Below are positions 2,849 to 61,612 of a DNA stretch of 64,000 nucleotides, in pieces. A program made the position numbers and the translations under genes. Position 1 is the first letter of the stretch; each line of letters starts with the position of its first letter. This DNA comes from Bilabrum cf. latius (taxonomy: Eukaryota), in contig OZ237735.1 in NCBI GenBank assembly GCA_965178125.1, positions 186,001 through 250,000 on the forward strand, in the 5' to 3' direction. A model generated the notes under the pieces. It had not been told where the DNA came from, ran no database searches, and saw nothing but the letters and a program-made list of their open reading frames with translations.

Positions 2849-2987
2849 GTTCAGCACCGAGCGATTCAATGCCGGCAGAATTTCGCAGGTTCGGGCTGGT
2901 GTATGTGACGAGTGTTCACTCATCACACTACCGGCGCAGCGTCGCTCCGCCGGGAGGGAGGATCCAACCAGCCTTCTGTGATAGAAA
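2849..2987. promoter_or_regulatory. Putative bidirectional promoter between the VPS9 gene and the protease
   Basis: 139-bp gap between divergent start codons. Inferred from geometry only. Confidence 0.45.
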
Positions 2988-20487: not shown

Positions 20488-23400
20488 ATGCGATTAGAAT
20501 ATGCTGTAGCTGCAGCAGTCGTCCTAGCGGGTACCAACGTGAGCGGCTGCTGGGTGCGCTTTGGGGCTCCCACGGCGGGGTCCATAAATGGGGTCGCACT
20601 GTGCAGGCCGACAGATGTCCTCAGCGAAGAGACAGCGGTGCTACCGGCATTGGGGATCTACGAAGTGCCTGCTTTAGTATTTCAGCTCAAGCTAGCTGGG
20701 GATAGATCCCAGTGCAGGTCAAGGCAGCGCCGGTGGGAGGATCACACGATGGGAGACTTTGAGACTGCATAGTTCAAAGTTGAGCACATGATTTGCAGTG
20801 GCGGTAGGCAGGATGGTCTATGCGCTGCATAGTTTCGCCTCGAAGGAGTCCCACCTTGCACGACGGTCCGGGCATCCGGTTCTATCGGCTCGGATGCCTC
20901 CCCAGCCAACACAACTTCTGTTGCTGCAAGCGGCTCTAAATCCAGCCCCAAGGACGGCAAGCAGTTCATAAATGCATCGTTTGCTACACCTGCTGAGGCA
21001 GGAAGCTACAGCTACCTGCGTTTCTTCGCGATGGCGTGTGCCAGGACAGGATCCTAGCACTCGGTGTTTCGAGCCATGGCGCGGGCGAGTGGCGACGCTC
21101 TCTTCGGGATCCACATGGGCGACGCCGTGTACTTGGATGAGAGAGCAAATTCCAGCGCCAGCTTCGTGCGCGCCTTCCGGTAGCAGCTGGAGAGCCCGAC
21201 CCAAGCAGAGATGCTCGCCCATCTGCCCATCGAGCACGTCTACTCGGACCACGACTTCGGAGGGAACAACGCGCACGGGGGCAGCGCGTCGGGGGACGCC
21301 GCCGTGGCCGCGCACATTGCCTTCCTGCCCGCCCCCGCCACCCCGACCCTCCCTCCGGCTGGAGACGCCGCCGGCTCCGAAGCACAGGCCTACCTGACGC
21401 ACCCGTGCCTGCACTGGAAGAAGGCGGGGCAGGTGCGCCTCGTGGTGCCAGGGGGGCCCAAGGGATAGCCAGGGAACAACGCCACCGTGCGGTTGCTGCG
21501 GAGGTCCTGGGTTGAGTCTGCCCCGGCCTGCAACTCGATGGTCCTGGAGGCCTCCTTGGCCAGGACCCGGCCGATTCAAGAGCAGGACGGGCCGGGCGGA
21601 CGCGTTGGGGCCAGTGCTGGCGCTGGCGGAGTTGCAGTCGGCCGGGCCGGCTCCACGGCATCGCGCGCGCACCGCGGCCCGCGAGGCATGCAGCGCGCCT
21701 TTTCGGTGAACAGAGTGCGTTTCATCGTGACGGATCTGAGGCGGTTCCGAGACAAGAACTACGCGCCTGATGCGGGATAGGACAAGGGAGCCGCCGCCAG
21801 CAGTGGGAGCACGGCCAGAAACATTAAGACCATGCTCGGGCAGGAGCAGAAAGAGTGGTTCCTCCGAGAAGTGCAGCGGTCCATCCTGTCTCATGTCCTC
21901 GTGGTGTGGGTGTCGGAGATCCCCTGGCTTTGCAGAGACGAGAAGTGGGGTTGGTTCAGGACAGAGAGGGACGAGCTCGTGCGGGCGCTAGTGGGCATGG
22001 GTGCGCATAGGCAGATGGTCATCCTGTCGGGGGATGCCCACATGCTGGGCATCGACGACGGGAGGCACTCCCCCGGGGGCATCCCCGTGCTGCACGCCGC
22101 CGCGCTGGACTCGCCCCCAAGTCTCAAAGGGGGCCCCTACTCCCACGGGGCCTCCCCTGGGCGGGGGCAGTTCGCGAGGCTGGAGGTGTGGGACGCGGGG
22201 ATCGATGTGGGCAGGATCCGAGAGGGCCTCCAGGAGGTGGCCAAAGAGGAGGGAAGGCGGTGGGCCTCCGTGGCGGACGCGGCCGCGGCCGCCGCCGAAG
22301 GCGAGATCAGCATATCCTTCGACGACGTGCCCCGATTCCATTGGGCCGACATGTACGCCAGCGGGGGTCAGGCATCGACCGGTGGCATCGACTCTCTCGC
22401 GGTGGACGGGACCTCCTCCATCCTGCCTGTTCCCTGGCACGTGATCCACGGGCAGCAGCACCGCGCCATGCTCACGGCGGGCGTGTGCCTCGAGTACCAC
22501 GGCTTTCAGGTGCATCGCAATGCGCTGCTGGGCGAGGCCAGCTCGGGTGACGTGGCGTAGGGGCAGCTGGGAGAGGATGTGCCGCCGGTGGCGGGGGCCT
22601 GGCACCCGGCGCAGGCCCCGCGCCTGGACAAGCCCAAGACCTGGGGGAATAAGAGCACGAGGGCATACCATGGAGTCTCCCGCGCGGTCCGTTATTCGAC
22701 CTGCGACATCCTCCCGAGCAAGGTGGCGGCCATGGCCACGGGCGTGAGGCTGCCTGCCTCTCCCGTGGCCCACGGCCGAGGCAAGGGGGAGGTACTCTCG
22801 AGGATGCTCCCGCCTCCCAGCCTCAAGGACAGAGTGAGGGGCACCTACGATTCGCCCCGCTCGGGCAAGCAGGCCGGGGCCGGCAGCCACGGCCCCATCC
22901 GATGGAAGGACTCGGGGCACACAGAGCTGGACGTGGACGAGTTCTGGGCCAGGGGAGGCGTCCGCGGGCTGGGACCAGACCTGCCCCTGGATGCCCCCGG
23001 GGCTCCCATGGACGGTGATGGGCTGTCCCCGCGGCAGCCGGGCATGTGGTCTTTCTCGCAGCTGGCCACTGCCGCGCGTCGGTGCGCTCTGGATGCTGAT
23101 GTGGGAGCCCGGTTCGCCCGCCGGATGCTCTGGAACCAGGCCTACGGCGGGCTCAGGGCGCTGCAGGACGGGCTGGCGGCAGCCATGGTGCAGGGGTACA
23201 GGCTGCAGTACTGGGTTTCCGGGGACCACACCTGCGCGGATGTGGTGCGAGCGTGCGCGACCGGTCGCCGAGTACCTACTGCCAGCTCGCCCGCCAAGCC
23301 GACGTCCTGGCAGAACACACTGGGCGAGCTGGCAGACCACGGCTGTGCGCCGAGGCCGCCCCTCGCCCTGTGGTCCGCGGCTGCGCGTGCTTCCGCGGCT

Positions 23401-25350
23401 CCCACCTTTGATCCCGTTGCCTTTGTGGATTCCTTGAATGGGTATGCGCTCTGGGCTACGTTCGGAGAGGACATCCTTGTCGCGGTTGCCCTTCTAGATG
23501 GCATTATGCTTGCCGCATGCGTGGGTGCAGCGGCCATTTGCTACGGCTGCTTCTGCATGCGGAAGAAGAGACAACCCCTGGTGCAGAAGGGCCGTGCGTC
23601 AGCTCAACAAACTCGCGAAGCGACGTCCGACAAGAGCAACGGGGTTGAGCTCACAGATGCGGGCAGCAACGCCGGCAGCACCAACCCCGGCGCCATGCTC
23701 GCGGTCGGGTTCATGTCGGGGACCAGCGCGGATGGTGTGGATGCAGCCGCGCTTCTGACCGATGGCCTCTTCCACACGCAGCTGCTGGCCACGGCAGCCC
23801 TCAGCTTCTCGGACGAGGAGCAGCAGCTGATCAAGGGAGCCATGTGGCAAGGATCATCAACCAGCGAGGCAGGGAGCAGTGCCAGCAAAAGCCCCAGCTT
23901 CGATGCCTCCTCGCCGCAGGCCTCTGCCGCCAGGGACATCGTCACTGGGGGATACATCGCTGCCGCACAGCGCCTCGCGGGCACACTGCAGCCAGCCATC
24001 GCGGAGTGGTGCGAGACTTGCTCGACGCAATCGGTGGAACAGCTGGTGCTGTCAAAGGAACGAGCGCACGTCGGCGCGATCCGGCGGGTGCTGCAAGAGG
24101 CTGCTGCTTTCAGTACCAAAGCCAAGGGCATGAAGCAAGGAGGAAGCAAAGGGAAGGCATCAGCGGGAGGCGGCAAACCAGACGGCTCCACCGCACCGAC
24201 ACCGCCGCAGACCGGCAGGAACACCGGAGAGGCCTCCACGTCCACGCCAACCCTCAAACTCACGCCAACCCTCAAACTCACGCCAACCCTCAAACTCCCC
24301 GGCGTGCTCCTGGGCATGCACGGCCAGACGCTGTACCACAACCCCGGGGTGGGAAGGTCGGTGCAGGTGGTTGACGCGCCGTCAGTGCTGGAGACATCGG
24401 GAGCGAGCGCGGGCGTGCACTCGTTCCGGTCTCTCGACGTGATGAGGGGCGGGCAGGGGGCGCCCCTGGCCCCCTTGTTCCACGCTGCCATCGCGGTGCA
24501 GGCTGCGGCCGAGGGCCGGCCCGGCGTGCGGCTGCCCCTCGCCGTTGTGAACCTCGGCGGAGTGGCCAACATCACGTTTGTTGGTGCACGGGCGGCCGAG
24601 CTGGTGGCGGGGTCCGCCTCGGATGCATCGCACGGCGGTGCGGGCGACTCACTCGTAGGGTTCGATTGCGGCCCGGGGATGGCCCTCCTCGACGACGAGC
24701 TGTCCGCGGCGGCGTGCTGCCCCTCCTCCTCCTCCCCATCCTCCTCGGTTTCGGTTTCGGTCCCTCGCTTCGATGAAGGGGGCTAGATCGCGATGAAGGG
24801 GACCCCCGATATGGAGGCAGTGGACGCCATCGTGGGGCACAATGCGGGCGGCGGAGGTGATGGCGATGAGGTGGGCGACGGTGCGGGGGGCTTGTTGTTC
24901 TTCCAGCAGTCCCCTCCCAAATCGCTCGACCGGAACCAGCTCAGAGCCATGGTGCGACGCCATTTGCCCGCACTGACGCACGGGGGCAGCGATTTCGATT
25001 CCGAGTTGGCGGACAGGTGCGCCACGCTCGCCGCCCTGACAGCGAGAGGGGTGGGGCTGGGCCTCGGGCACCTCCCTGCTCGGCCCGTGTGCGTCATAGT
25101 AGCGGGAGGTGGCAGGAAGCACGGCGCCGTGATGCGGGGGATCCGGAGGGAGGCCCAGGCCCAGGCTCACGGTGCGCGGGTGCTCACCGCCGAGGAGGCC
25201 GGGTGGGACGGGGACTAGCTCGAGGCGCAGTGCTTCGCATGGCTCGCCGTCAGGAGGATCCGCGGGCTGCCCACGAGCCTCCCGTGCACCACCGGGACTA
25301 GCCAGCCAACGTGCGGCGGGGAGGTGGTCGTTGCTAGCCGCGAGGAGTGA
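20488..25350 (+). CDS. PhoD-like metallophosphatase - transmembrane helix - anhydro-N-acetylmuramic acid kinase (AnmK) fusion, ~1620 aa
   Basis: One frame from ATG 20488 to TGA 25348, with TAGs at 20770, 20830, 21055, 21181, 21466, 21778, 22558, 24784 and 25216. PhoD motifs [43 protein letters not shown] segment [29 protein letters not shown] then RKKR. AnmK motifs [64 protein letters not shown]. Confidence 0.85.
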
Positions 25351-25546
25351 GTGACAGTGGGGAGAAAGCGGACGGCATCGCATGGCCGTCACCCGTCGAA
25401 GTGCGACGCGGCAATCGTTTGCGACCAAATCGTGCGACTACGGTTGCAACCACTTGTATTCGGTGGGCGTTGATCCATTCCCTATCCTTTCAGGGCCCAT
25501 TTTGTGATAGATTATATCCATTATTCATAAATTTGCGTACATATTC

Positions 25547-28500
25547 ATGCAACTTGTCATTGCAGTGTGTTGCGCGCTCTTTCTGGTCCAGATAGCTGAA
25601 GCAGTCATCCATGGTGCCCATCGGATTGAACAGGCGTCCGTCCTAGCTCAAGATATTGCCGAGGCTGAATCCATTGCAAGCAATGGCGAAGCCTTTGCGC
25701 CAGTCCGCGCCGGGTTGCCGTTGCAACGACTTGGCCCGAAAGATGCGCTCGGCGGAGGGGGGGCGTGGCTTCGGATGGACTCTGGAGCCACAACATACTT
25801 TGCTGGCGCGATCGGCTCCGATATCGGACTGGACGGAACGGTTGCAAGTACAGCCGGTAGTGTGCACATGCTCCAAACTTAGCTCCTATCAGCAGTCTCG
25901 GGCAACACGCCTGCCGCGCCGCTTCCTCGACAGATGGTATCCCACGCCGACACGCTGGCTGCAGACCAGAGGGGAAACCTGAGCACGCTCATAACCGCAA
26001 ATAATCTATTTGGAGCAGCTATTGCCCCGATCCCAGCCGAGGACAGGAGCGGGCTGGCGCGCGGAGGCGGCGCCGTCGCCGACACAAACGAGCTCACCCC
26101 CGAGCTCGCGATTGGCATCCCGGGCGCCAACGCGCTGGTGCTCGTCTCGGTGCACGAGACGTCCGGCGGGGTCATGCATGCGGGCAGCACCGTGCGCCTG
26201 TCCTCGGCGACGGAATCGGGGCTCTCCACCCGCACCCGCACGGGGGACGAGTTCGGCGCCAGTGCCGCTGCCCTGCACGACCACAGCAGGCTCACCGGCC
26301 TGCCTGTGATGGCCGGGGCCCCGCGGTAGGCCTTCTCCGAGTCAACCGCGGAGCAGATGGTCCTGGCGGTGGGGGCCCCTGGGGCGGGCCCTCGCCTCCC
26401 CCTGGACGTTGGGGGTGCAGATGGGTGCTCGTCACACTGCGGCGAGCTGTGGATCCTGAGGCTGCAGCGGTCAGACGCGGGGCACGCGCAGCCGGGGCTG
26501 CAGCCCGCGGGGAGTCCCTGGCGATGGGAAGTGACGAGCGAGTCAAGGATCGCGCCCTCCATGGCCGGTGCCCCCGCTGCCCTCTCCGCGCTGGCTGCCT
26601 CTGCCGGAAGCCAGCCCAGGTTCGGGGCCTCTGTAGCCTCGCTGGGGGACGTGGACAGCTCGGGGACGATGGAATTGGCCGTGGGAGCGCCGGGCGCAGA
26701 CGGCGGGGACGGAGCCGTGCTTGTTCTGTCCCTTTCGTCCAACGGGCAGCTCAACTCCGTGGACGCCACGCTCTCTCTGGCGGCCAGCGGGTCTGTCCTC
26801 GGGTCCCTGGGGCTGGGTGCCGCAGGATCGTCCGCCGCTCTGGGGTCTTCCGTCGCCGTGGTCCGTTCCCAGGACGTGGGCGTCTCGGATTCGACCCTGG
26901 TGCTCGCGGTGGGCGCCCCCGGAGCGGACGAGGGCCGCGGGGTGGTCGTGCTGGCGGTGCTGCAGGGGGCCGACATGACCCTCCCTCGAGCGGCATCGAT
27001 CGGCAGGGCCGGCGCGGGCGCCAGCATTGACTTCCCGGCGGATGCGGTGACGGGCGCTCGCCCGGGAGACCGTCGTGGCTCCTCGCTGTTTGCAGTGGCG
27101 TGGTAGGCAGCGGGAGGGGCCACGGACGCGGACGGTGACGCCAGCACGGCCGAGCTGCTGGTGGGGGCGGAGGGGCACGACGGGGGCTCGGAGGACTCGG
27201 GGGCGCTCTTCGTGGCGTCGATGACCTTCAGCGGTGTGACGAGTGGAACCCTGACCGTGGACGTGGAGCGGGTTCTCGAGCTGTCGGCGGATGGCGGGAT
27301 TGCCCGCACTGAGAGCTCTGCCGGCTCCGGGGACGGCGGTGCCCCGGGGGCTCTCTCCGCGAGCGGCGCGGCGTGGAGCGGCGGGCTGGGTGCTTCCTTC
27401 GCAGATCTGGGGAACACGGCTCTGGACGGGTCGGTGTCCTCTCGAGAGATCGCTGTCGGGATGCCCGAGAGCGGCGCGGGGGCGGCTGCAGCGGTGGGCC
27501 CCGGCCTGGTCGCCATGCCTGCGGGTGACTCCGCCTTGCAGTCACACGCCCCGCCCGACAGCACGGGGGCGGTGCTGATCGCTTCTCTCGTGCCCGCTGA
27601 CGTGAGCAGCGCGGGATACACCGGATCGCCTTCCACGCAGGCCGCGCCCCCTCGCGTGGTGTCCGTCACTGAGATCAGCGCGACGGCGGGCGGGCTCTCA
27701 ATGGCCGCCGTGCAGCACGCCCGCACGGCGGCCGCAACCGCACTGACGCCGCCCTCTGCCGCCTCTGCCCTGGTCCAGGACGAGGCCGGGTGGCCGCTGC
27801 TGCCGGGAGACGAGTTCGGGTCCAGCATCGCGAGCGCGGTGGTGAATTCCGACGACGGGACATCGTCCAACCACTGGCTAGCCGTGGGCGCGGCGGGTGA
27901 TGGAGGCCTGGGCAGGCAGGCCACGGGCAGGAGCACGGGGGCGGTGCACGTGCTGCGGATGACACCAGCCCCGGCTGGGATGCGGCACGTGGCATCGGCA
28001 CAGGCGTCTGCCGTGTTCCCAGAGACATCTGCCGGCGGCACTGCTTTCCACCAGTCCAGAGGGACCGCAGCTGGCGTGTCGCACCGGCTGCGTATCGCCA
28101 CTGACACGGTCCCGGAGCTGGCGGAGTATGCCGCCCGTGTGAAGGTGCTGGCGGACGACCGCGGGTTGGAGCGGTTCGCCTGGCGCTTCGGAGAGGCCGT
28201 GGCGCTTGGGGAGCTCCCGCGCGCGCCTTCCTCCTCGCCGCCGTCGATTGGGCAGCACTCCAGCTACACGGAGGAGGCAGCGGATCTGGCGCTATTCGTC
28301 GGTGTGCCCGGGGACTGGGACGAGGAGGGAGACAGGCGGGGCGAGTTTCGTGGCAGCCTGGTGGTCATCCGGCTGATTGCGGACGCAGACGGGGCCCCTG
28401 CGCTGCCGACTGCCGCGGCCGCAGCGGCAGCAGGCTTCGACCGCGTGATCCGCGTGGACGACGTGGCGATGAACTACAGCATGGGGCTCCAGGACAGAGA

Positions 28501-29872
28501 CTTCTTGGGTTCCTCCATCGCTCTCCTAGGGGACGTGAAGAGGACCGCGCACTCGCTGCAGGTGGCGCTGGGGGCGCCGGGCAGGGACGCTGGCGGGTCA
28601 CGCGGTCTGCAGAGCGCCCGCGGCGCGGTGTTCATCTTAACGCTGGGGCCCAACGGATACCCCGGGCTGCCGCGAGACACTGAAGTTCCCATCGATGACA
28701 CGTCCTCCAACCCTCCACCCATCGCCGGCGACCCGGATGCAGGATCGGTGGGTCGGCGGGACGTTCCCACGTCTCGTACGGTCACCCGGTACCCCGTCGT
28801 GCTAATCGACGGGAGCACCCCTAGCCTGGCTGGCAAGGTCACAACGGCGGCTTCTCTTGGCACGGCGCTGGCAGCGGTTGAAGTCGATGGGAACCCGCTC
28901 ACCGCTGAGTTCCTCGCAAGTGCACCGGGTGCAGGCGACCCCGAGGGCTCCGGAGTCGTGTTTCTGATGCGGTATGAGCCGGACAACGACGTGATTCGTC
29001 CGACGGACTACTTCAACGGGGCGACGCTGGAGCTGCTCGACGTCATGTCGGCGTCTGTTTCGGCCGTCTCAGGGACTGCGGCAGCCACGGCCGCGCTGCT
29101 GGGGCCCCAGCTAGAGATGGACGATGGGTTTGGGCACAGTCTTGCGGCGGTCGACGCGTCGGGGTCGGGATCCAGCCTCACGCTGGGCTCTTCGCAATCC
29201 TCGCCGGGGGACGGGACGAGGGTGTACGCCATCGTTGGTGCCAACGGACACGACGGCGCGTCGGGGCAGAGGCATGCAGGCGTGGCCTATGCCGTGGAGC
29301 TCCCGAGGACGGTACCTGCGGGCGTAGTGCCGTCCACCTCGCCCACCCCGAGCCCCACCCCGTCCATCACGCCGTCCCCGAACGCGTCCGTGTCGGCTCT
29401 CCCGGCCAACTGCTCGGACCCAGGACAGGTGCTGGCCAACCCTGAGTTTTGCGGGCAGTTCGAGGAGAACCCCGAGGACGCGGGGCTGACAGCGACGGAG
29501 CTGGCCGTGATCCTCGTGATCGTCTTTGTGATCCTCATCATTGTGGGCATCGTCGCGTACTGCCTGTACCAGCGGCACCAGAACATGGTCGAGGGGCGGG
29601 AGTACAAGGTCAAGAAGACCACGGACGAGGAGGCGCAGGCTTGGCTGTGGGGGGCCAAGCAGAAGGACGGGGCCGCACTCACGAACATATCTGAGAAGCT
29701 AGCGGAGGAAAAGAAGGGCATCAAGCGATCAGATGTTGGGGCTAGCATTCAGGCGGGCATCTATGACAACGTGGACGAGGAGGCGGCGGGCAGGGCCACG
29801 ACGACCGGACGGTCCAAGAGGAAGGGCAAGAAGCACAGGGCCGGGCGCAAGCGAGGGGCGGCGGCGGTGTGA
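25547..29872 (+). CDS. FG-GAP (integrin-alpha-like beta-propeller) repeat type I membrane protein, ~1441 aa
   Basis: Signal peptide MQLVIAVCCALFLVQIAEA. Many FGxS...LAVGAPG repeats, a PT-rich stalk, TM segment LAVILVIVFVILIIVGIVAYCLY, and a basic tail. TAGs at 25880, 26327 and 27104. Ends TGA. Confidence 0.85.
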
Positions 29873-30030
29873 GTCTGTCTGTCTCAGGATCAATCTTGTT
29901 GATGCTTTGTTCTTTGTTCCACCATAAACTCATCTCTAAATCAAAGATATAGCCAAAAGCCACATGACCTGGCATCAATGCAACGACTCGGAATCACCGA
30001 GCAGGATCCGCACCCCTGCGTGCCTCACCG

Positions 30031-33000
30031 TCAGTGTCGCTCCCTCTTCCCGCCAATGAGGCTCAAGAGGACTGGAATCACCAGCAGGGCATGAAACAGG
30101 CCCACGCTGAGCACCAGGAAGAGGCACACAAAGAAGCACCGGAAGATGTACGACGTGGACCCTGACAGCAGCGCCACTCCGAGCAGAGAGGACAGGCCTC
30201 CGTACAGCACCGGCCGTCCAAGGCTTACAAGCGACACGATCACGCGGGCTCTAGGCTCCGCTCCGCCCCACACCCACGTCTCTGGGATGTTGAGTGTCCT
30301 TTCCACCGCGCCGGCGAGCCCGCACATCTCCCCCCTCCCTGCATTGAGGCACGGCAGCGGCTTGCCCACGCCTGTTGGCCTGTCCCCATCTCCATCGCCA
30401 CTGATAACATAGTAAGGCGCGGCACTCTCGACGGCTTCAACTGCCGGTCTCCCGGCGGCAGCCGCGCTCCTCGCCCTCACTGCAGAGCCCCCCAGGTCCA
30501 CCCCGGCATCCTCACGGGGCGCGCTAGTTGCCCCTATTTCCTCTGGTTTCTCTTCTTCCCCGGCAGTACTGGAGGAACCGCTCGCGCCTCGACCGTTGAA
30601 GATGGCACCATTGGGCCCCTCAGCACCGTCAACCGCGCCCCCCGCTCTTCCATGCCCCTACCCCTGCCCCTCGCCACCAAGGGCATGGTGCTTCCTCTTG
30701 AGCATGAATGGTCCCGTCCACTCGTTGCCCCACGCCTAGTAGAAACCCTCGGCGGGGTGAGAGACCATGTCCAGACTGATGCCTAGCCCCAGGCATAGGT
30801 TGATTGCAGTCACCGAGTTCAGGTCGATGCCCTCCCCGCCCCACATGGCCATTCCGCCGAGCACCCCCACGTCGATGGACACGAGCATCATGCCCACCAG
30901 CAAGACAACAGGGAGGGAGGGCAGTAGCACGATCGCAACCAGGATCATGGCCGCAGCGCAAACCAGCAGGGTCTGGATGGTGGAGTACCTAACCGAGTTG
31001 AACTGCTCGAAGAACAGGAAAGGCTCGAACCACAGCCTCGCGGGAGCAGACGCTCGCTGTCCGACGGGCGCCCGGTGGTCTCCCACTCCTTCGTCTAAAG
31101 AGGCCCTCAGGTTCACCATTGCCTGGCCCATGTCCATTGATGAGTACAGCGGGGTCGTGCGCACCTCTACTTTGGAGGACACCACGCACGGCGCGCTCGT
31201 AGGATCCACGGATTCGTTCCTAGCCAGCGCTCCCTGCGCGGCACCCGCATCGGCGAGAAAGTTCGAAGCACCCTCGCTCCCCGGCACATACAGCCGCGAG
31301 CCATCCCCTGCCGGCGTGCCGTCTGCGTGCAAGTCAGCGGGATCCATTACCCCAGAGCAGACGGCCCGCCCTCGCGCCAGCGCAAAGCTCGGCCGCAGCA
31401 TCGGCCCGATGACATCCGTGCCCACGAGATCTGCCAGCACCTGCATGAACTGCGGCTGGGTCATGTCCTCGGGGTAGGATCGGATCAGGCGGAGCCCCTC
31501 AAACCACGGCAGCCAACTCTGGCCCACCCCGTTGCCGTCTAGCGAAGTGCCGAGCAGCTCGGCCAGCGAGCTGAGCCCGTCTCGGCAGGCCTGCAGCCGG
31601 AAGCAAGAGGGGGACGGCCAGCCGTCGGTCCCGAACCCAGCATCCACGGCAAATTCCACGGGCCGGCTTTCTACCCCCCGGAGTCTGGCGCGCATGTCCT
31701 ACGCACCATGCTGCTGGTCTACCGGAGAAGACAGGCCAACTAGCATCCTCAAATGGCCAGTGGCTGACTGGCCACGAGTCCTTGCTGCTGCTGCTGTTGC
31801 GATGCCTTGCAGCGCGTGTCTGGGATCCGTGCCGTCCGCACTGAGGTCAAGGGGGAGCTGCAGGCCCCCGAACTGCTCTTCCTGCGCCTCGAAGAAGTCG
31901 TGCACGTAAGAGTCGTCCGGCGCTAGCTGCTGCAGCTCCAGGTTTTCGCCAAGGTTGCGGATGGCTGACCCGAACACGGCCAGGTACACAACCCACAGCA
32001 CCAGCACTGCCACCCTCACCTCGGCTCGCATGAGGAACGGGGCTAGGCTGCTGGCACATGCCCTGTCGCACGCCCCCGACAGGACGGGGACGTCGTGGCT
32101 CTGCCCGTGCTGCGAGCCGCTGGGCTAGTCGTACAGTTGCTGCTCGTCCTCTCGCACGTGCTTTGCCTCAGTGATGGCAGACTCCAGAGACACGAACGGA
32201 GTGTTTCGGAAGCAGGTGCAGAGCAGCCTGTCTTCGGGGACGAATGATCGCCCGGGGAAGTCCATTCTCACCGCTACGTCCTACTGAAGCTGCCCGGTAC
32301 CGTTCATGTCTTGCTCGCCATCATCCTCTGCTACCAGCATGGGCCCGTCCTCTCCTTCCATCCCATTCAAGGATCCGTTGAAAGACCCCGGAGCCACCGC
32401 GGGAGCAGCGGCATCGTTGAGAGCATAGCCTCCATTGATGCTGGACCCGGCCTGATGACCTCGGTCGTGATCCTGATCCTCCTGCAACATGGCGTAGCTC
32501 TTGGAAACAGACCCGTCTCCATCAATGTCAGACCCAGGGGCACAGCAGCTGAAGGTACACGGCAGACGAACATCCCTGCTGCAATCAAAACGAGCGGTGG
32601 CGCCGACCACAGAGCCATCCCTCCGCACGGCCGGGTCCGAGCACGGAAAGCTGGCGAAACAGCCCCGCGGCTGCCCGTCGGCCTCTTGCACGCAACTCAG
32701 CATGCACGACGGACATATGGCCACGTCGTCATCGTGCTCCGGGCCCAGGCCGGCACCCACAGGGTGTGCCACCCGCCCGCAGCACATCGCCGATCGCCCC
32801 TGCGCCTCCCTGCGTGCGTCCAGCACCATCCAAGCCGTGAAGAAGGTGATCTGCAGCACGTAGTCACACAGGACTGTGGCCACTGCATACAGGCAAAAGT
32901 TCTGCACGCCCCGCTGCTGGGTGAGCAGCCCACCCACGGCGAACGCCAAGCAGTCCGTGATGCTCGTCACGGTGATCGCCACGCCGGCCTCGCGCATGGT

Positions 33001-34395: not shown

Positions 34396-34628
34396 TGGCA
34401 ACTGCCGAATAACAATTGGAGTAGCAGGCTCTTTAGCTTGCGCAAAGGGGCACGCAGGGATCGCTCAAAGGACACGAAGTGCTCCTGTGTTCCTGTCACG
34501 CTGACGACGATTCGGCAGCTGGTTGGACGCGTGCAACAGAACAGTGTGACGTGTCGTCATCGCGTGTTCGCCCCGCTCCTAGAAGGAATCCGAGCGCTGG
34601 AGGTCTCGTTTCATTGGATTCAAAGCAC

Positions 34629-37291: not shown

Positions 37292-37386
37292 GATTCGAGA
37301 ATGCTAAATCCATCCAATAATACAGTCTTCTGTCCGAAATGGCTCGGTACAAACAAGATCTGTCACGATTCCAATCAAGCTTAAAA
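37292..37386. promoter_or_regulatory. Putative bidirectional promoter between TBCE and AGL
   Basis: 95-bp AT-richer gap between divergent start codons. Inferred from geometry only. Confidence 0.5.
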
Positions 37387-45196: not shown

Positions 45197-45306
45197 GGGC
45201 TATTTGCTGGCGGTTGCAACCAAGGAACCGTGCTCGACTCTATGTGTGCCTGTATGCCCGGATTCACTCAGAATGTTTCGCAAGAGCTATGATATGAATC
45301 AATAAT

Positions 45307-51300: not shown

Positions 51301-54300
51301 GAGCTGTAGGGTGAGATTGGCAGAGACATGGAGATTGCCTTCTATGCCCTCGGTAAGACGGTTGAGATGGCGTGTGTGACCGGCGTCTCTAGCCGGGCGA
51401 GAGAGCGCAAGCTGCGGCAGCTGGCGCTCGAGCAGATCTCGGTGACGGTGCCCGATCTAGAACCTGGCGATGGTGCCCGGATAGTAGATCCCAGCAGCAC
51501 ACATCTCGGCAGAACCGGCACCGTGCTTCAGAGGCAGCCGGGCGTGCGATTCGGAGGCAAAGCCACCCTGAAGATGGACGACTCGGGTCAGCTGCTACAG
51601 GCGTACCTTACGCACGGGGGCCAGTCCGACATGACTGCCTAGGACTCGCTGCATCCTGTCCCAGGAGAGTTCGACAGCACCGGCAGCTCTATGGTGCCTG
51701 CTCGCCGGTAGCGCCTGCCCTGGTACACCCAGGACCAGCTGGTCGCCATGCGCGGCAGTCTTCTGCAGCATGCGGAAGCTATCCGACATAAAGAAAGGAC
51801 GAGGACAGCGGCGATCCGCATTCAGTCTGCGGCTCGCATGTGGCTCGCTCAGGCCCTGGCCGACAGAACCAAGCGACTCCGCGAGCTTGATCCAACCGCC
51901 GGGCAGCTCGGCGATTTGACCCTCTACGAGGAAGAGGACGTGTAGGCAGTCATCAAGACGAAGCCCGCCACAGGTTGGACTTGCGCAGGCTTGTTTGGGT
52001 GCCTAAGGCAGGCAGCCACCGCCGCTGGGCGCCGGGCAGTCAGGCGCCAGAACGAGATGCGGCACCTGATGCGCGCCAGGAGGCGCTGGATCCGCGACAT
52101 GGTGTTCCGCCGCAACCTGGCGGTGTCTGCAAGCGTGCCTGCAAAGGACATCGAGAGGGTTCTCCAGTCCCGCCAGCGGCTCGAAGCGATGGAACGTGCC
52201 GACGAGATGACGGAATGGCACCAGCTGGCGGAGTCCTACACGCGGGTAGACGTAGGCAGTGCTCTGGCCCCCGCCCCACCGGCCACCGGTGCTCGAGTCG
52301 ATCACTGGGCTGCTGCAAAGGACTCCCGTCCGGGCACCGGGCACAGCACGGCACCAGGCACTGCGACGGCCGCTGGGGAGTTTCCGTTGTCAGCTGGAGT
52401 TCAGGATCGTGTGGGATTCGGAACAAACGACGCTGGGGATGATGATGATGCATCCCGAGATGATCGCGGCGACGTATCGCTGCAAGCGACTTCGCTCGCG
52501 CCAAGTCGCCTCACAGAGGATGGGATTGGCAGCGGACTTGCTCGCGGCGAGCAGCCGTCCAACACGTGGTCTCGTCTCGCCAAGCCTCGTCCATTCGCAG
52601 GCTTCGACGACTTTGCTATGTCCGAGGATGACGGCCCCACGATGGTCGCTGACCTCACCACAGTCGGCGCTCTGGACAGGAACGGCCTGCGGCGGCGGTT
52701 CTAGCAGCGCGATCCCAATGCATAGGACAGCACCGAGTACAAGGAGCTGAGGCTTGAAGGCGACACCAGCTCTGCCAGGCTGCAGACGGCCACCGAGCGG
52801 CAGATGGTGGTGCAAACGCCACAGGCAGCACTGCGACACATTGGTGGCTCAGCCAACGTGCACATGCCGGCTAGTCGAGCACGCACGGCCCCAGCCATGG
52901 GGCGTGCCCCCAACATGTCCGCGGATGCCAGCATTGGCGCAGGTGCCATGCACCTGATCTCAGCCACGGAATCCAAGCGGTTGGCGGCACAGGCTCTCAG
53001 GCAGGTGAGGACAGCTGAGCATGGCACCCGAGAGCAGGCGCAGGGTGGGTCGCCGGGCAGTAGTCGTCCGGGCAGCGCGGCCTCGCAGACTGGGCTGCAC
53101 GGCATCGGCACCCCGTCCATTCTTCTCGATGCTCCGGGCATTGCGACCGATAGTTTGGAGCATGCTGTGGGCAAGAGGTCGAGCGTATTGGGTGGCGAGA
53201 CCCAGGTTGATCCCGAATCCGTAGCAATGAGCGGGTTCATCGCTGGGCACAGCCTGGAGCAGGCCGCTTCACTCGCCTCGATGCCTCGGGCGCCCGCCGT
53301 GCCATGGTCAGCGGCGGGCCGGGCACGAGGCGAAGTACCCATCAAACCATTTGGCGAGCTGGCACTGGCGCCGAGCGGTGGAGGGAACAAGGAGTGCACT
53401 GTGGCATCGAGCACACCGTCCAATCGGGTAGAAGGCTCTGCTGCATTTGCGGGATTCAGGGTGGGCACCGGTGCAGCCATCGGAGCTAGCGCTCCACTGC
53501 CTCGCAGCGCCATCGGCACCCCGCCTGAGGTGCTTCTGCTGCGGTGGAGGGAGAGAACGGCCATGGCCGTGCTGTGGCACAGGATGCGATACATTTTCCT
53601 TGCTTCGTTCTGCTACCCAGTCGCCAATCAGCTGCAGCTGCGGCACGAGATTGAGGCTGCCAGAGCCAGCGGCAGGCGCGCGATCAGGTGCCAGTCTCCA
53701 CGAAGGCCGGCGCTGACGCTGGAGGACGACGTGCAGCCTGCGGCGCACACACATGCGATACAGCCAGCCGTGGCTGCAGCCCCGCCCCTGGATCTCGGCA
53801 AAGCAGCAGGGACTGCAGGGGCAGCCGCAGGAAGCAGCCGCAGGCTCGCGCCAGGCGATGGATCCGCTGCCGATCTGCGCTCCACCGCAAACCTGCACGA
53901 CTTGGACCACAGGTCGGGCGAGGCCGTCTCTGGAGCTGCCCTGTGCTGCGCTGGGCCGGAGTGGCAGGAGGGTCACGTGACCTACCGCACATGGGTGGGC
54001 AGCTACAGGTTCACCGACCTGCGGCACTCTCCGCACGTGTCCGCCGGCGGGGATTCCCTCTACCACGGGGAGTGGAGCGAGGTAGGCGCGGCACAGGGGC
54101 ACCCGCATGGCAGGGGCTACGTGCACTTCTTGTCGGACCACCCTCGCTTCAACCCCGACTTCAACCGGTGGCCGGAGTACTACGAGAGGCTGCGGCACGC
54201 TAGAGATCGGCTGCTGGCCACAAGGGCGGACCGACCGTACGGCGAGCTGTTCACTGGTGCCAAGCCAGACGCAGATGTGCGGTCCAAGATGGCGAGGCTC

Positions 54301-57300
54301 ATCGCAAGGGACGAGGCCTTGTCTATCGCCATCGCGGCGCAGGCCGAGGCTGTCACTGTGGGGGCAGAGCCGCGAGCACTGGCCCTGGACGCGGTGGCTA
54401 GCTTGGCACGGAGGCTGGAGGCAGCGGCACGGAGGGACAGGAGGCAGCTGGAGCGCGCTGCCAAGCGAGGACACGAGCAGCCCTCCCACGAGCAGCCCTC
54501 CCACGTGAGGGGCCGCCAGCTGGAGGCTGCTATCCAGCGGGAACAAGAGGCGCGGGCCAGGAGGCTCGAGTGGCTGCGGCTGCGGGACTATGCGAGAAGG
54601 CAGCAGTATCTGGAGGCGGTGCGGCGCGCGGACGAGATCGCTCGTGCTGCGATCGGGGACAATCCGCAGCTGCTCCGCGACGCGTGGGGCGCGGGGGGCG
54701 GAGCCAGCCCGCAAGCAGCGGTGCGGCGCGCCTACAGCCAGAACCTAGACGATGTGCCCACCCCTCGACCCTAGTCTGCAGCACAAGACTACCAGTCATA
54801 GGACGGACTAGACGGTGGTGACGCATCACCGGCAGAAGAGGCCAGGCGACAGGCGGTGGAGCAGGTCCAGGGCCCGGGCTAGCTTGGCTACAGGCAGCAC
54901 GAGTTCGAGCCGCCGAGCGGTCTCGAGCTTAGCCCACTGTGTAACGACATCTCGTACGACCAGCTCGAGGGTGAGTTCAGGCACGGCTACGTGGGCGGGC
55001 TGGTGTCCATCTGGTACCGTGACGGCAGCGAGTACAACGGAGCGTACGTGTCCACGCTCCCGGACCCTCCCCGAGCCTCGATGCCTGACACGCCCTCCAC
55101 GTTCGATGAGGAACTGAAGCTGGCGCCCGGCATGCGCACCGGCAGGCATGCCATCGCGGACGCGGGCGGGCGGCTGTTCGAGGTGGCCATGCGGGCAGTG
55201 GGCCCAATCCCAGAGCGCCTGCTGCCTGCCTCGCTGCGCGGATCCAAGCACGTCGAGAAGTGGCTGGACGCATCTTCGCCCCAGCCTCGCCCGGTGCAGG
55301 CCGGTGGCAAGGCAGCAAGCGATCCTCTCGACCTGAACAAAGTACCTGCTGCAGCGGCCGGGCGCTGGTCTCCGAGCAGCGATCAGTCGTCCGTGTCGGA
55401 TCCTGACATGCCGGACGACCGCTAGTCTGGCTCTTTGATGTCCTCTGGCGGCCACCAGAACCTGCCCTCAGACTTTGAGCCCATCCCGCCCATGTCCATG
55501 TCCACTGACGGGGCGTCCGTGGGGTCTGACGAGCCGGGCAACCAAGGCGTCGGGCCGCTCGTCACTTCGTCGCTGCGTCAGGGATCGGCCGCAAGCCCAA
55601 CATTCACGCAAGGGCTCGGCACCGTTATTCCTAGCGGCGCCTCTCATCAGAGCCTGCAGAGCCTTCAGGGCCTCGCCCTCAACGAACGCCCCGCCAGTGC
55701 GTCGGTGGTTGTGGTCACGGGCCAGCCGCTGCCTGTTTCCCCCGATGATCCGGGGGAGGTGGACCTTCGCAGGGCCACCAGGCCGCGGGTGCGGTTCCCG
55801 CTCTTCTCGTGGCTCGGTAGCCTGTGCACCGCCATGGTGCGGCCCTCGCCTCCGATAAGGGGCCGGCTGGACGGTCACTGGGGCGTGTGGGTCACGAGAG
55901 ACGGCTGGCGCTTCGAGGGGCCCGAGGTGGACAACCACTTCAACGCGCTGCTGTGCACGGCGAGCAGGGCGGTGGTGCGGTCCCCTGACGGGCACGCCTA
56001 CGACGGTGCCATGTGCCTTGGCAAGCGCCACGGGAGGGGCGTGATGCGGTATGACAGCGGGACAACGTTCGACGGCTGGTGGCGGGATGGGGTGCCCTCC
56101 GGTCCTGGGGTCGTGACGCGCCCCTCTGGCCACCAGCTGGTCGGCTCCTTCGAGCACGGGCTGCCCCACGGCATATGCGTCGAGACGGACAGTGCCGGGG
56201 GGTTGTTCGTGGGCGAGTTCATGCACGGCTCCAAAACCGGCTTTGGGATCTTGCGGTCCGGACTGGTCGCAGCGGAGCCAGTGGGCGGCGTGCAGCTGCC
56301 TGCGTCCCTCAACACAGGAGCAGCAGCTGTGGATGCGCTGGTGAGAGAAGTGCACCTGGGGCACTTTGCCGGCAACCGTCCGCACGGGACGGGAGTCCGG
56401 CTGTACCGAGACGGGTCCTTGTTCTGGGGGGAGTGGCAGCACGGCAAGCGGAGCGGGTACGGTGTGTGGGAGTGGCCATCGGGGCAGAGGTACGACGGCA
56501 GCTTCGTCGACGACCAGAGGCACGGGGAGGCCGTCGTGTCCACGCCTGCTCCCAAGACGCTGGTGCGGGCCCCCGTCCTGCACGATGATGCCACTGTCCC
56601 GACGGCTGCTACGGCTGCTGCTTGTGCCAGTGGACCGGGGGGCCTGTTTCAGGAGCATGGCGCGGAAGACGGAGCAGCAGCTGATGCGCGACCCAGGGAG
56701 CAGGCGGGCCGCGATCCCACCGAGCCACCAGGTGCCTCCTCGTCCCCCTCCAGCGGCAGCACGGCCGGGAGAGAAGCCAGCCGGACGAGAGCCGTGCTGC
56801 GGCGACCACACAGACCGACATGGTCCGCCCGCACCGTGGACGAGACGGCCATTCGGTGGGTGCTGGACTCGGTGCAGAGCCGGGGCGGGTCGGTCGCCGC
56901 GCTGAGCGCGCGCATCGGCACCGAGGTGCGGCGGGCGCTGGACGCGTCCAGGCGGCTATACCGGGACGAGAGGCGCTGGGAGCGGCGCGTGGCGACAGAG
57001 TGGGAGCGGGACAGCAAGGTCCGCACGTTGGCTGAGCTATCGAGCGAGGCGGCCACGGAGCAGTTCAAGAGCAGCTTCCCGCTCGAGGTGCCGCTGCCGT
57101 CCCGGGGGCCAGTGCCCACCACTGCGTTCAGGGAGGAGGGCGAGTCCGGGGAGAGGGGGGGGGATGGCGACCCCCAGCACGGTGGCGATGGGGCGGCGGA
57201 AGAGGCCGAGTCGCCGCTGGCGGGCCAAGCAGAGCACTCGGCTGGTCCTCTCCCAGACAAAGCTGGCAGCGGCCCAAGCCAGGCCCCCGGCAGCGCTGCG

Positions 57301-59592
57301 ACAAGCCCAGCCCAATCGCCCGAGGCCCAGCTGCACCCGCTGCAGCCCGAGCCCGAGGCTAGCCAGGAGCAGCAGGGGGCGCTGGTCTGGAGGAGCCTGC
57401 TCGCCGGGACCACGGCGGCGGTGCTGCCCCGCCTGCCGCCCGGGGTGGACCCTGAGGACCCGGAGGTGAGGGAGATCGCGAGTCGGCTGCAGCAAGCCAA
57501 CCCGGAGGTGGCTGGCACGCGCGGGATTCTGCTGTCCAAGCAGGACCTCCAGCGCGAGTACGACAGCATGAAGCGGGATCGCGCCGACCTGAAGAAGCTG
57601 AAGGATCGCGCGGACCGCCTGGGAGCCCAGAGCGCCGGGGCCAGCGCGCAGATCCAGGAGGCGGAAGCCGACCTCTCCCGGGCCAGGGGCAAGCTGAACT
57701 ACGCCAAGCACGCCCTCGGGGAGTACTGGCACGAGAACGACCCTAGGAGGACCAAGGCAGAGTACGACGCCAGGGTCGCCGAGCTGGCGGGTCTCTCGGT
57801 GGAGCAGTGGGAGGAGCTGCGGTCCCTCAAGGAGCCGCTGCTGGGGCCCGCCCGGCTGCTGCGGCCCGTGGGCCGGGCGCTCGCCGTGCTCACAAACTCG
57901 CCCGAGGGCTGGTCCAAGGTAAAGCTGTGGTTCGCTGACTCGGACTGGTGCCGCCGGCACGGGATCGAGGTGGACATTGCGGTGGACGAGGACTACTACC
58001 AGGAGGAGGAGGAAGAAGAGGAGGAGGAGGAGAAAGGGGCCTCCCAGTCCGCTGCATCGGGACACGAAGCCGAGCCCGGCGCGGGGACGCACGAAGGGCT
58101 CGAGAGCCGAGCCGGTGCCCATCGGCGGAAGAAAGCCCCGCACTTCCGGGCGCGCCTCGTGCACGAGTTGCAGCGGCAGCACCTGAGCCCTTACGTGGTG
58201 GGCCGGTCCTCGAGCAAGCTGGACGAGGCGCAGCGGCTGCTCTACGGGGACCCGCAGCTGAGGCCAGACTCGGAGGAGGTGCTGAGGCTGCCGGCCGCGG
58301 CCCAGGCCGTCATCGGTTTCCTGCGTGCCCTGCACGCGCACGCCCTGGCGGCGGCCCCCGCCTACAGGCTGTGGATGGCCTACACGTCGGCGCGCACGGG
58401 CGTGGGCCTCTACTCGGGTTCGACCCTGCGCGCCGTGGAGGAGGCCGGGGCCCTCGCGGGCAGGGCGCGCCAGGCCGGGGAGAGGGCGCGCGCGGCGCAA
58501 AAGGCGCTGGAGCACCGGGAGCGAGGGCTCTCCCGCTGGGCGCGCGAGTGCGGCGAGGCGCGGGAGATCGTGCGCGCCTACCACGGCGACGACGGGCTCG
58601 TCGAGGTGGACGCGGACATGACCCCGCGGGGGTTCTCCGTGCCCGAGGGCGTCCTTCCAAGGGTGCAGCGCACTGGGGTGCGGGCGCGGGAGGACGAGTA
58701 CGTCCCCGCGCTGCGACAAGAGGACCGCGCCGAGATGGTGGCCGCCCGCGCGGGGGTGCTGCGGGACCTGGAGGGGGAGCAGCGGCGGGCCGAGGCGCGG
58801 AGGGTGCGCGAGTTCGATTCCCAGAGCGAGGCGCTTCTGGCGGGGCGCGGGGAGGGGCGGGGGCCGCAGTCCGGGATGGTGCTGGTGCGGGACGCGGACA
58901 GCGGGTGGTGGTACTGGTTCGACCCCATCGGGGGGGACACGGTGTGGGCGAGCCGCAGAGAGGTAGAGGGGGGTGCCGCCGCCGCCGCCGCCGCCGCCAC
59001 GGGTGGCGGGGAGGATGTGGGGCAGCTGGATGAGGACGAGGTGCGGGAGCTCAAGAAGCTGGCCCGACGTGCGCTGCGTGAGGGCAAAGAGGCTGCCGAG
59101 GCCGTCGCTGCAGCAGGGGGTGCTGGTGCTGCTGCGGCGCCCGCCTCGGAGCTTGCCAGGAGCAGGGCGGCCATCCGGGCGAGGAGGGGCGAGGACAGGG
59201 GCGCGGACAGCCAAGATGGTGGCGGCGGCGTCAGGGGGCCCCCGAGGGGCCGCGCGGCACGGGCCGGCGAGCATCTGGCCCGTCGCGTGGCGCACGAGAG
59301 CAAGGTTGCGGAGGCGATCGCGGTGATGCGGCTGGACCCCGCCGAGCTGGACCAGGGGCGCATCCTGAGGGAGAGGGGCGAGCGGAGGATGGAGCAAGAG
59401 GTGCTGGAGCCGGACGAGGGGGAGCAGTGGGGGCTGCCGGGGGCCGTGCGGCTCGGCGCGACATGGGACGATGCGGCCGGGCCCGGGCCCGGTCCACGGC
59501 GCGAGGACGGGGACGAGCAGAGGAGGAGGGACGTGGGGGGCCTCATGCGGATCTCGGGGCCCGGGATGGAACGTCTGAAACCCCTTGGATGA
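45307..59592 (+). CDS. Giant multidomain protein, ~4720 aa: Cys-containing LRRs, IQ/Sfi1-like basic repeats, KOW-like motif, MORN repeats, coiled coil with dynein-stalk-like insert, WW-like motif
   Basis: All track ORFs from 45307 to 59592 in this frame are separated only by TAG (29 counted). The one in-frame TGA (46837) falls inside a predicted intron 46836-46958 (GTGAGA...CTGAC...GCAG) that restores ITDDLSSYLLRGSP. IQ motifs ATRLQSWWRG, ATRIQRNYRR, AIRIQSAARM. MORN motifs YDGAMCLGKRHGRG, FWGEWQHGKRSGYG. Confidence 0.75.
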
Positions 59593-59788
59593 TTCGTGCA
59601 AACCCGCGGTTTTTAAATCCATGCGCGAGCACAGAAGAGAGGCCGCGCGCGCGCGACAATGCCGAATCGATTTTGTTGTTGCGAGTGGTTTCGGTGCTAG
59701 TCTGGTTTTGCACGAACGGGGGATCGAAACGGAAACAGGAGTGCTCCACACACGCGTCTGCCCTTGAATCGCCGCGCAGCGCTCGAGC

Positions 59789-61612
59789 ATGCTCCCACAA
59801 AAGCGAGGGCGTGTCGATGGAAATACAAATACGGGACATGCGCGAGAAAATTCTTCCTAGCCGTCGTCCGGAGCGGCTCAGGACCATTCCGGGTCCAAAC
59901 GGCATCGCTCCGAATCCGGGGCGAGCGGGCGCTCGTCCGGCGGAAATTAGGCTGGATAGAATGAAACTAGTCAGGCGCAGCAAGTAGCCGCTGCTGCGGC
60001 ACGGCGAGCCGCCGCCGCGGCGCGGAGCGCCGGGAGAAAGAGCTAGCTGGACCAGCTCGCGAACGCGGCGGAACGGGTGAGCGCCGCAGAGTCTAGCACG
60101 CACGGGCGGCGCTCCGCATCGGCGAGAGCGATTGCTTCTGCGTACGGAAGCGAGGCTCCCACTCACGTGACCAGGGCCTCCACGGGCTCGCTGCAGCAGA
60201 CGAGGATCAGCCGGAGCTACCTCGACGAGCAGCAGGCGCCGGAGCCTCCCTCGGCCCAGCCGCAGCGCGGCCGCAACGCCGGCGCGGCGGCGGCCGCGGC
60301 CGCCGCCGCGGCTGCCGCCGCTGGCGCGGTAGCGGCGCGCCAGGCGCGGCAGACCTCCTCAGGCGGCGGGGGCTCGGCCGTGACCATGCCGAGCCTCTCG
60401 CGCATCCCGGCCGCCCCGATGCCGCCCCCCGGCAGCGGCGGCAGGCATCATGGCTCCTCGTCCTCCGCGGGGCAGCAGGGCGGCGCGGACGCCGACGCGG
60501 ACGCGGCGGCCCTCCGGCGGCGCGGGCGTCCCCGCGGGAGCAAGATCGCGGACGGCACGACGTGCCCCCAGTGCCAGAAGCCCTTCAGCACGCACTCCAA
60601 CCTGATCAAGCACATCCGGGCGGTCCACGAGAAGAAGCGCAAGTTCGAGTGCCCCAAGTGCAAGAAGCGCTTCGCGCAGCACATCGACATGGCCAGGCAC
60701 GTGGACGCCGTGCACAACCAGATCAAGGCCTTCCGGTGCCCGCTGTGCGACAAGGGCTTCGGGTACTCGAGCAACCTCAACAAGCACGTCGAGGCGGTGC
60801 ACAAGGAAAAGGTAGAGGTGCGCAGGGGCAAGGGGAAGCGGGCCGAGTTCGTGCGCAAGGACACGGGGGAGAAGCTGCCCATGCCCGTGGGCGCCGCGGC
60901 CACCATCACCACGGACCCGCTGCGCAAGCCGGCCCCCGTGTGGAACTCGGACGAGGGCAAGGCGCTGAATGTGGGCAAGCTCGACCTGTCCACCCCGGCG
61001 GGGGCGGCCGCCAGCGCGGCGCAGATCGCGGCGGCGCGGGCGGCCGGCCGCTCGACCTCCTCGAGCTCGTCCTCCTCCTCGTCCTCCTCCGCCATGGGGG
61101 GCGGAGCCAACAACGCCGCGGCGTCGGCGGCCCTCGTGGCGGCCATGGCGGCGTCGGGCGGCAGCAGCGGGCTGACCGGCCTGCCGCACTCGTCACACGC
61201 GTCCAACCCCCAGTTCGCGGCGGCCGCGGCGGCTGCGGCGGCCGCGGCTGCTCGTCACACCAAGGCCCGAGCGGCCGAGACGGCGGCCCGGCAGGCGGCC
61301 AAGAACGCCGCGGCGGCGTCCCAGCGGCAGCAGCAGCAGCAGCAGTCGTCGTCTTCGCTGGGGGGAGAAGGAGGGGTGTTGTCGTCTGGGTCGAGCCGCC
61401 TCCTCAGCATGCCGCCCCCGCAGTCGCAGACGGGCGTCAGGGCAGAAGGGATGGTCCCCGTGGTGGGGGCGGGGTCCTTGTCGATGCCCCCTCCCTCCGG
61501 GGCGGGGTCCTCCTCCTCCTCGGCGGCCCAGTCCAGGGTGGTGGACGTGGCAGCGGCGGGCGCGGCGATGGGGGCGAGGGCCGTGGAGGAGCAGGTCGCC
61601 AGGGAGTTCTGA
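59789..61612 (+). CDS. AT-hook + 3x C2H2 zinc-finger transcription factor, ~607 aa
   Basis: ATG 59789 is reached by reading through TAGs at 59858, 59948, 59957 and 60044. AT-hook RRRGRPRG, three fingers (CPQC, CPKC, CPLC), and A/S/Q-rich tracts. Ends TGA. Confidence 0.82.

Follow-up and report, generated by a model that had tools for sequence, protein, structure and literature searches.

The stop codon UAG has probably been reassigned to glutamine, UAA not having followed it, in the organism that contributed a 64,000-nt stretch of DNA filed under Bilabrum cf. latius (assembly GCA_965178125.1, contig OZ237735.1, positions 186,001 to 250,000). This would be a table-15-type code with UAA as a rare stop or unused. 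The whole stretch is called the window below, and positions are counted from its first letter. It is 65% GC overall (58-71% along its length) and, jointly with this reading of its code, is probably nuclear DNA of a compact, intron-poor, GC-rich eukaryote. A bacterial or standard code breaks the window into many open reading frames (ORFs); taking TAG as an amino acid yields few very long frames of 607-4720 codons, which are open only with TAG read as sense and encode proteins typical of eukaryotes. Genes are separated by spacers of only 110-200 nt and contain few introns, all of them short.

Seven frames delimited mechanically between positions 20488 and 61612 contain 9, 3, 8, 7, 11, 19 and 4 TAG codons (61 altogether), 74 CAA and 399 CAG, with no TAA and no internal TGA, and all of them end in TGA. 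When frames were bounded by TGA only (table 6, stop to stop), no internal TAA was gained and extra TAA or TAG appeared only in a few codons upstream of the start, so the zero count does not depend on counting TAA among the stops. Over the whole window, 12 frames comprising 16,306 codons have 69 TAG, no TAA and no TGA in frame; TAA is present 33 and 27 times in the two remaining sense frames of this DNA.

One of the 61 TAGs proved to be part of a splice donor. A contig from sequencing run X5 passes directly from 46835 to 46959, leaving out 123 nt bounded by GT..AG, with joint sides of 255. The skipped intron (46836-46958) reads GTGAGA...ACGCAG, the junction codon is TAT, and the joined frame spans 4720 codons with 29 TAG and one terminal TGA; in X12, which represents a relative, the same interval is replaced by 104 unlike letters. 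Joined by this intron, ORFs 45307-46839 and 46885-59592 are one gene. The apparent TAG at 46834-46836 is completed by the first base of the intron, and the TGA at 46837-46839 that seemed to end the first ORF lies inside it; since both belong to the splice donor, neither is a codon, which leaves 60 sense TAGs in six genes. The sequence-only reading had counted 61 sense TAGs and no sense TAA in ~41 kb, over seven ORFs; the absence of TAA and the raw count of 61 were reproduced, while the totals are corrected to 60 TAGs and six genes. Outside 20488-61612, four of the 69 TAGs in the whole-window count are probably not codons: two in 10027-12003 precede the Met from which the paralogues align, and two in 12317-13693 lie in a misread frame beside a likely splice acceptor.

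The number of TAA codons expected if TAA encoded glutamine was calculated by setting TAA/TAG equal to CAA/CAG or, conservatively, to the lowest NNA/NNG ratio of any codon pair. For the six genes, the first ratio (0.185) predicts 11.1 TAA and the second (0.10) predicts 6.0, and none was observed (P = 1.5e-5 and P = 2.5e-3, respectively); stratification by position along the gene gives an expectation of 16.4 (P = 7.5e-8).

A relative provided a second sample. Scanning metagenome contigs with the glycogen debranching enzyme of the window gave 567 matched stretches and 546 relatives, of which 80 were kept. Among these, L001 is an environmental contig of 11.3 kb and 58% GC, encoding a debranching enzyme of the same unusual length that is 61% identical over 2357 aligned residues. 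Synteny extends over three genes, both neighbours being orthologous (68% and 34% identity). The three L001 frames (3,434 codons, CAA/CAG 0.38) contain 36 in-frame TAG and no TAA, with 13.7 TAA expected, or 9.3 on the lowest NNA/NNG ratio. L001 is a stronger test than the window because the GC content of its third codon positions (GC3) is only 0.63. A joint Poisson calculation for both samples gives P = 1.7e-11 for 11.1 + 13.7 expected codons, and P = 2.3e-7 on the lowest ratios (6.0 + 9.3). Seven contigs of table-6 type from that scan (L016, L047, L048, L055, L056, L057 and L073), which likewise encode debranching enzymes, served as the positive control and showed TAA/TAG counts of 5/8, 12/10, 6/6, 11/8, 13/18, 4/6 and 4/3. 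Within ~20,000 codons, UAA is not a sense codon in this lineage. The sequence-only reading, that UAG is sense while UAA is not and that the code is thus not ordinary table 6 under GC bias, is supported by these control contigs and by the observation of no TAA where 15-25 were expected; in-frame TAA at glutamine positions, which it had named as the contrary sign to look for, was sought in 16,306 + 3,434 codons and none was seen.

To assign the amino acid, the three syntenic gene pairs of the window and L001 were aligned. They include 55 TAG codons, 27 of which fall in well-aligned columns (at least 4 of the 10 flanking columns identical), and the 28 opposite gaps or in poor alignment were left out. 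At 23 sites the partner of TAG is Gln in ten cases (nine CAG, one CAA), Glu in three, Arg in three, His in two, Ala in two, and Ser, Val and Gly in one each; two further well-aligned columns have TAG in both window and L001. CAG codons in this comparison have the same spectrum, facing Gln in 49 of 112 cases, TAG in 9 and Glu in 11. Summing BLOSUM62 scores over the TAG partners ranks Gln best (53), followed by Glu (29) and Arg (17), with Leu among the worst (-48) and Trp strongly negative. The alignments thus support glutamine as the probable reading of TAG. The two shared TAG sites, together with the same codon pattern in L001, imply that the code change predates the split between the two lineages.

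Domain order also runs on across the TAGs of the debranching enzyme and of a Patched-like protein (30031..34401). PDB alignments of the debranching enzyme are colinear over residues 166-2531, reaching chain residue 1531 of 1532, and none of its seven TAGs falls inside the aligned blocks. The PTCH1 alignment is colinear with residues 350-1450 of the Patched-like protein across in-frame TAGs, the single aligned TAG standing opposite Thr in a weak block.

The 14 gene ends of the window are without exception TGA, in agreement with the earlier statement that TAA never ends a confident gene, and the single complete end in L001 is also TGA; only 12 of the 14 are independent, since two pairs belong to a recent tandem triplication. 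For the debranching enzyme, a protease, a WASH complex subunit and the anhydro-MurNAc-kinase-like (AnmK) part of the gene at 20488-25350, the TGA falls where the family profile or solved chain ends, the AnmK profile match (PF03702) extending to profile position 363 of 367 at residue 1612. These ends bear on the alternative that survives best, although we consider it improbable: UAA would be unassigned, eRF1 recognising UGA only, as in table-6 organisms, the sole additional decoder being a tRNA-Gln(CUA), and UAA being avoided both in frame and at gene ends. TAA is indeed missing from all 14 window ends, from the L001 end and from every frame, and it is not rare in non-genic DNA, where 83 TAA stand beside 243 TGA; on that ratio (0.255) the lack of TAA at 12 ends has P ~0.03. 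However, the scan also returned GC-rich contigs with the standard code (L007, L008 and L037), whose 13 ORF ends are TGA in 10 cases, TAG in 2 and TAA in 1, and at their rate (TAA ~9%) the same outcome has P ~0.3. Ends that are all TGA are thus weak evidence, as GC-rich standard-code contigs likewise end mostly in TGA. Published UAG-only lineages, moreover, keep UAA as a stop, as far as the accessible parts of the two reports describe them (PMC5304391, PMC11687900).

Positional data were used to evaluate a dual, position-dependent UAG of the Condylostoma or Blastocrithidia type, sense within genes and stop near their 3' ends, to which we give very little credence. Over nine long genes, TAG thins toward the 3' end, with 30, 11, 12, 7 and 4 codons in successive fifths of gene length, and in two genes a TAG follows the TGA stop by two codons. 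Yet none of the 14 genes ends at TAG. CAA declines along these genes too (30, 20, 13, 16 and 11 per fifth). Between the first and last fifths, GC3 climbs from 0.68 to 0.85, CAA/CAG drops from 0.38 to 0.09 and TTG/CTG decreases about threefold. In L001, the 25 TAGs of the debranching enzyme are spread over the whole gene, with six in the last quarter and the last lying 81 codons before the stop. The 5' skew is best explained by composition, given the parallel gradients of CAA and GC3, the lack of any gene end at TAG and the even spread of the L001 TAGs.

Ordinary table 6, with both UAA and UAG as glutamine and TAA too scarce under GC bias to appear, is slightly less credible still. GC3 reaches 0.75-0.88 in most genes, making A-ending codons scarce, and L043 and L044 (GC3 0.72) have a single TAA each to 7 and 6 TAG. 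Against this, 6-16 TAA were expected in the window and 9-14 in L001 and none was found (joint P of 2e-7 to 2e-11), and even the first fifth of genes, with CAA/CAG at 0.38 and 30 TAG, has no TAA. As a separate observation, TAG/TAA counts in L043, L044, L066 and L080 (7/1, 6/1, 5/0 and 6/0) are too small to call; these contigs could represent UAG-biased or UAG-only lineages.

Contigs from public sequencing runs were examined for editing and splicing. An X5 contig of 7912 nt spans the debranching enzyme (37607-45405) with 0 differences and no joint, and 25 of the 30 TAG codons in 37574-52000 are covered, unchanged, by zero-difference X5 contigs; short-sided joints from other contigs in the debranching-enzyme region (sides 21-38) were set aside. 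X5 is most likely RNA, given its GT..AG-spliced joint, a depth step from ~28 to ~5 at a gene boundary, and contigs ending near gene ends, and if it is RNA, editing of the TAGs is excluded. An unchanged code, under which the TAGs would sit in in-frame introns that had gone unrecognised, in pseudogenes or at assembly errors, or would be edited in the RNA, has negligible probability. The window does contain introns, and of the TAGs counted mechanically at least five are not codons (the one at 46834, two in 12317-13693 and two in 10027-12003). Yet 60 TAGs and no TGA or TAA occur in ~12,300 codons of six genes, 25 of the 30 checked TAGs are unchanged in X5 contigs, the debranching-enzyme transcript has no joint, and L001 adds 36 TAGs, two at shared positions.

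The window sequence, or one nearly identical, occurs in runs under several organism labels, and X11 and X12 contain a relative differing at ~8-10% of bases. The lineage has thus been sequenced repeatedly, perhaps as a co-cultured organism.

Several observations weigh against the reading of UAG as glutamine with UAA left behind, or against steps leading to it. TAA terminates none of the 15 gene ends, so that there is no positive example of UAA as a stop. TAG codon 1577 of the gene at 20488-25350 stands opposite Trp in two bacterial AnmK structures, a single distant comparison. Of the 60 TAGs, 31 lie in the first quarter of genes (Kolmogorov–Smirnov (KS) P = 7e-6), which could hint at position-dependent reading. 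X5 is labelled 'RNA? (probably DNA)', and the argument against editing rests on the interpretation of the spliced joint and the depth step; no run among those holding the sequence is listed as RNA, X5, X7 and X8 being only guessed to be. Finally, the sample consists of 64 kb and one 11-kb contig.

A CUA anticodon reads UAG and not UAA, UAG-only reassignments exist, and the mechanism proposed for them combines a CUA-anticodon tRNA with eRF1 changes that weaken UAG recognition, according to the available parts of the two reports (PMC5304391, PMC11687900). This published mechanism would fit the window. UAG would be decoded by a tRNA-Gln(CUA), one mutation away from the CUG isoacceptor, whose C34 should be unable to pair with the A of UAA, and eRF1 would no longer compete effectively at UAG. 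UAA would remain a stop, and we propose that it is rarely used because GC pressure favours UGA. Most TAGs may have arisen by C-to-T change of CAG, and would accumulate, like CAA, in the AT-richer 5' parts of genes and in less conserved stretches. The window contains no eRF1 gene, and ARAGORN found no tRNA in the window, L001, L007, L043 or L080. The only tRNA-like element of the window, at 62639-62701 (+; Rfam tRNA, 34.5 bits), has the anticodon loop CUU (Lys) and lacks most of its T arm; it is probably a remnant and not a CUA suppressor.

UAA and UAG nearly always change meaning together. Both are glutamine codons (table 6) in many ciliates, hexamitin diplomonads, some ulvophytes and Amoeboaphelidium protococcarum. 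The window shares with table 6 the reading of UAG as glutamine and the use of UGA as stop, and differs in that TAA is sense there, whereas window and L001 together have none against 15-25 expected. Amoeboaphelidium, an algal parasitoid aphelid with TAG and TAA as glutamine (PMC6299283, accessible part), has a genome reported at 40% GC (PMC10608142, likewise in part) as opposed to 65% in the window, and is excluded as the source. The closest likeness is to table-15-type lineages, in which UAG alone is glutamine, UAA is not sense and tRNA-Gln(CUA) is the expected decoder; the available parts of PMC5304391 and PMC11687900 name the fornicate Iotanema spirale and the ciliates Hartmannula sinica, Trochilia petrani and Protocruzia tuzeti. 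UAA is described as the dominant or preferred stop of UAG-only lineages (PMC5304391, as far as accessible), ending 93.5-100% of aligned C-termini in H. sinica and T. petrani (PMC11687900, likewise), whereas the window ends 14 of 14 genes in TGA and no TAA stop was seen in it. It differs from them also in its 65% GC and in a WASH subunit whose closest counterparts are those of stramenopiles rather than of ciliates or metamonads. UAG is likewise decoupled from UAA in the rhizarian exLh and some phyllopharyngean ciliates, which read it as Leu, and in Scotinosphaera, which reads it as Ser (PMC5304391 and PMC11687900, the latter for Scotinosphaera; available parts), while the amino acid suggested for the window is Gln (BLOSUM sum 53, as against -48 for Leu). 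Condylostoma, Parduczia and Blastocrithidia resemble the window in having stop-type codons within genes, and the thinning of TAG toward 3' ends is a further likeness; the window differs in lacking in-frame TGA or TAA and any gene end at TAG, and its thinning follows GC3.

For phylogenetic placement, the debranching enzyme and the WASH subunit were compared with known proteins. The best matches of the debranching enzyme are environmental proteins of similar unusual length, and its named matches are lower-scoring and mostly opisthokonts. For residues 560-860 of the WASH subunit, the best named matches are all stramenopiles, with oomycetes at 47-49% identity followed by Triparma, Aureococcus, Cafeteria and Ochromonas; animals reach ~40%. 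In a FastTree analysis of 38 WASH sequences the window grouped with Cafeteria and four environmental sequences, although the two branches are long, with an unusual composition, and the program cautions against long-branch attraction. Without Cafeteria, the window stayed with the environmental group, outside ochrophytes and oomycetes. This one gene tentatively suggests that the source is a heterotrophic stramenopile outside ochrophytes and oomycetes. The protease had protein-atlas matches to its own family only, in arthropod-dominated clusters, and was uninformative for placement; the WASH subunit had no PDB match, and scans of genome contigs with the debranching-enzyme alignment A1 and with the WASH subunit found no relative.

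To our knowledge, the published lineages with UAG alone as glutamine are AT-rich, and we know of no nuclear code change in stramenopiles. A literature search, which did not extend to supplements and most subscription journals, returned no report of a GC-rich or stramenopile lineage with UAG as glutamine. The window stands apart from the known lineages with this code by its high GC content, by having UGA as its sole observed stop, and by a probable stramenopile home. More speculatively, and with a good deal more against it than for it, the window could belong to a deep clade of GC-rich heterotrophic stramenopiles, comprising at least two genus-level lineages as well as species-level relatives in public runs, and carrying the supergroup's first known nuclear code change: 62 sense codons, UGA as sole functional stop, and UAA unassigned, with only a CUA-anticodon tRNA-Gln and a UGA-restricted eRF1.

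It is chiefly through the few exceptions to the joint behaviour of UAG and UAA that nature allows one to study how the two codons are distinguished by release factors and tRNAs. In this lineage they would have become decoupled starting from the opposite base composition, every observed termination being at UGA, which bears on whether UAG is captured because few genes end in it and on whether UAA may fall entirely into disuse. In practice, its genes will be cut short or misread if annotated with the standard code or table 6, and metagenomic gene callers will split its proteins. Mis-annotated fragments may already be present in public protein sets, since the sequence occurs in runs under several organism labels.

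The genes between 20488 and 61612 all end in TGA. At 20488..25350 (+), 1620 codons with 9 TAG and no TAA encode a PhoD-like phosphatase with a C-terminal AnmK-like part (Pfam PF09423, PF03702). The PhoD-like part, a hydrophobic segment and the AnmK-like domain share a single open frame, an unusual combination for a eukaryote that could be one gene or two. It is followed by a gene without a Pfam family at 25547..29872 (+; 1441 codons, 3 TAG, no TAA, coding-potential score 423.8) and, on the minus strand, by the Patched/NPC1-like membrane protein (1456 codons, 8 TAG, no TAA; PF12349, PF02460). Also on the minus strand, the gene at 34629..37362 (1 TAG, at least one intron) has CAP_GLY, LRR_4/8/9 and Ubiquitin_2 domains, in an order (CAP-Gly, LRR, ubiquitin-like) from which we take it to be tubulin-cofactor-E-like (TBCE). 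Its syntenic orthologue in L001 is the neighbour with 68% identity, and by reading of the sequence has matching GT..AG introns.

The debranching enzyme (37574..45196, +) is of eukaryotic type, with four Pfam GDE domains in order, 2540 codons, 7 TAG, no TAA and its TGA at the conserved C-terminus. A standard-code debranching enzyme of similar unusual length occurs in L007 (8921-17683; 67% GC), is 43% identical and ends in TAG; a PstS-like phosphate-binding domain lies upstream in the same frame, and the matching database protein P0008 also has PF01547/PF12849. Downstream in the window, the 4720-codon LRR/MORN gene (+) consists of exon 1 (45307..46835, 10 TAG), the 123-nt intron described above, and exon 2 (46959..59592, 19 TAG, no TAA), which carries the MORN repeats; the L001 frame orthologous to exon 1 (9908-11275) has 9 TAG. 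A C2H2 zinc-finger gene (59789..61612, +; zf-C2H2, 607 codons, 4 TAG, no TAA) has a second TGA directly after its TGA stop.

Three further genes with TGA ends and no TAA occupy the start of the window: one at 17..2926 (-) with 2 TAG, a papain-family protease at 2988..4790 (+) with no TAG, and the gene for WASH complex subunit 4/7 (SWIP) at 5006..9454 (-) with 2 TAG. The latter comprises ORF 8657-9454, matching positions 58-179 of the WASH-4_N profile, and ORF 5006-8644, matching positions 180-572 followed by WASH-7_mid and WASH-7_C. Further introns split this gene near 8645-8656 and set the CAP-Gly exon (36710-37362 region) of the tubulin-cofactor-E-like gene apart from its LRR body.

Positions 9950-20300 hold the tandem triplication, whose ~3.4-3.5 kb unit combines a C2H2 zinc-finger gene, with finger repeats of 87 nt, and a GH5-like gene. 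Two copies occupy 10027-13693 and 14074-17200; a third, degenerate zinc-finger copy is at ~17600-20284. The one TAA-ended ORF that has any coding score, at 19784-20284 (-), was considered as a TAA-terminated gene and rejected: it is the N-terminal part of this degenerate copy, and as paralogue similarity ceases before the TAA, the codon is not stop evidence. Long stretches of the GH5-like copies show 99-100% identity, and the copies have 3' flanks in common; a 27-nt tandem repeat of ~9 copies (15735-16058, peptide GLGGKVDRE), expanded in the second, explains its 189-nt difference from the first. Near the far end of the window, at 61895-62629 (-), lies an enoyl-CoA hydratase-like fragment in a frame that scores low for coding; it may be a single exon of a gene.

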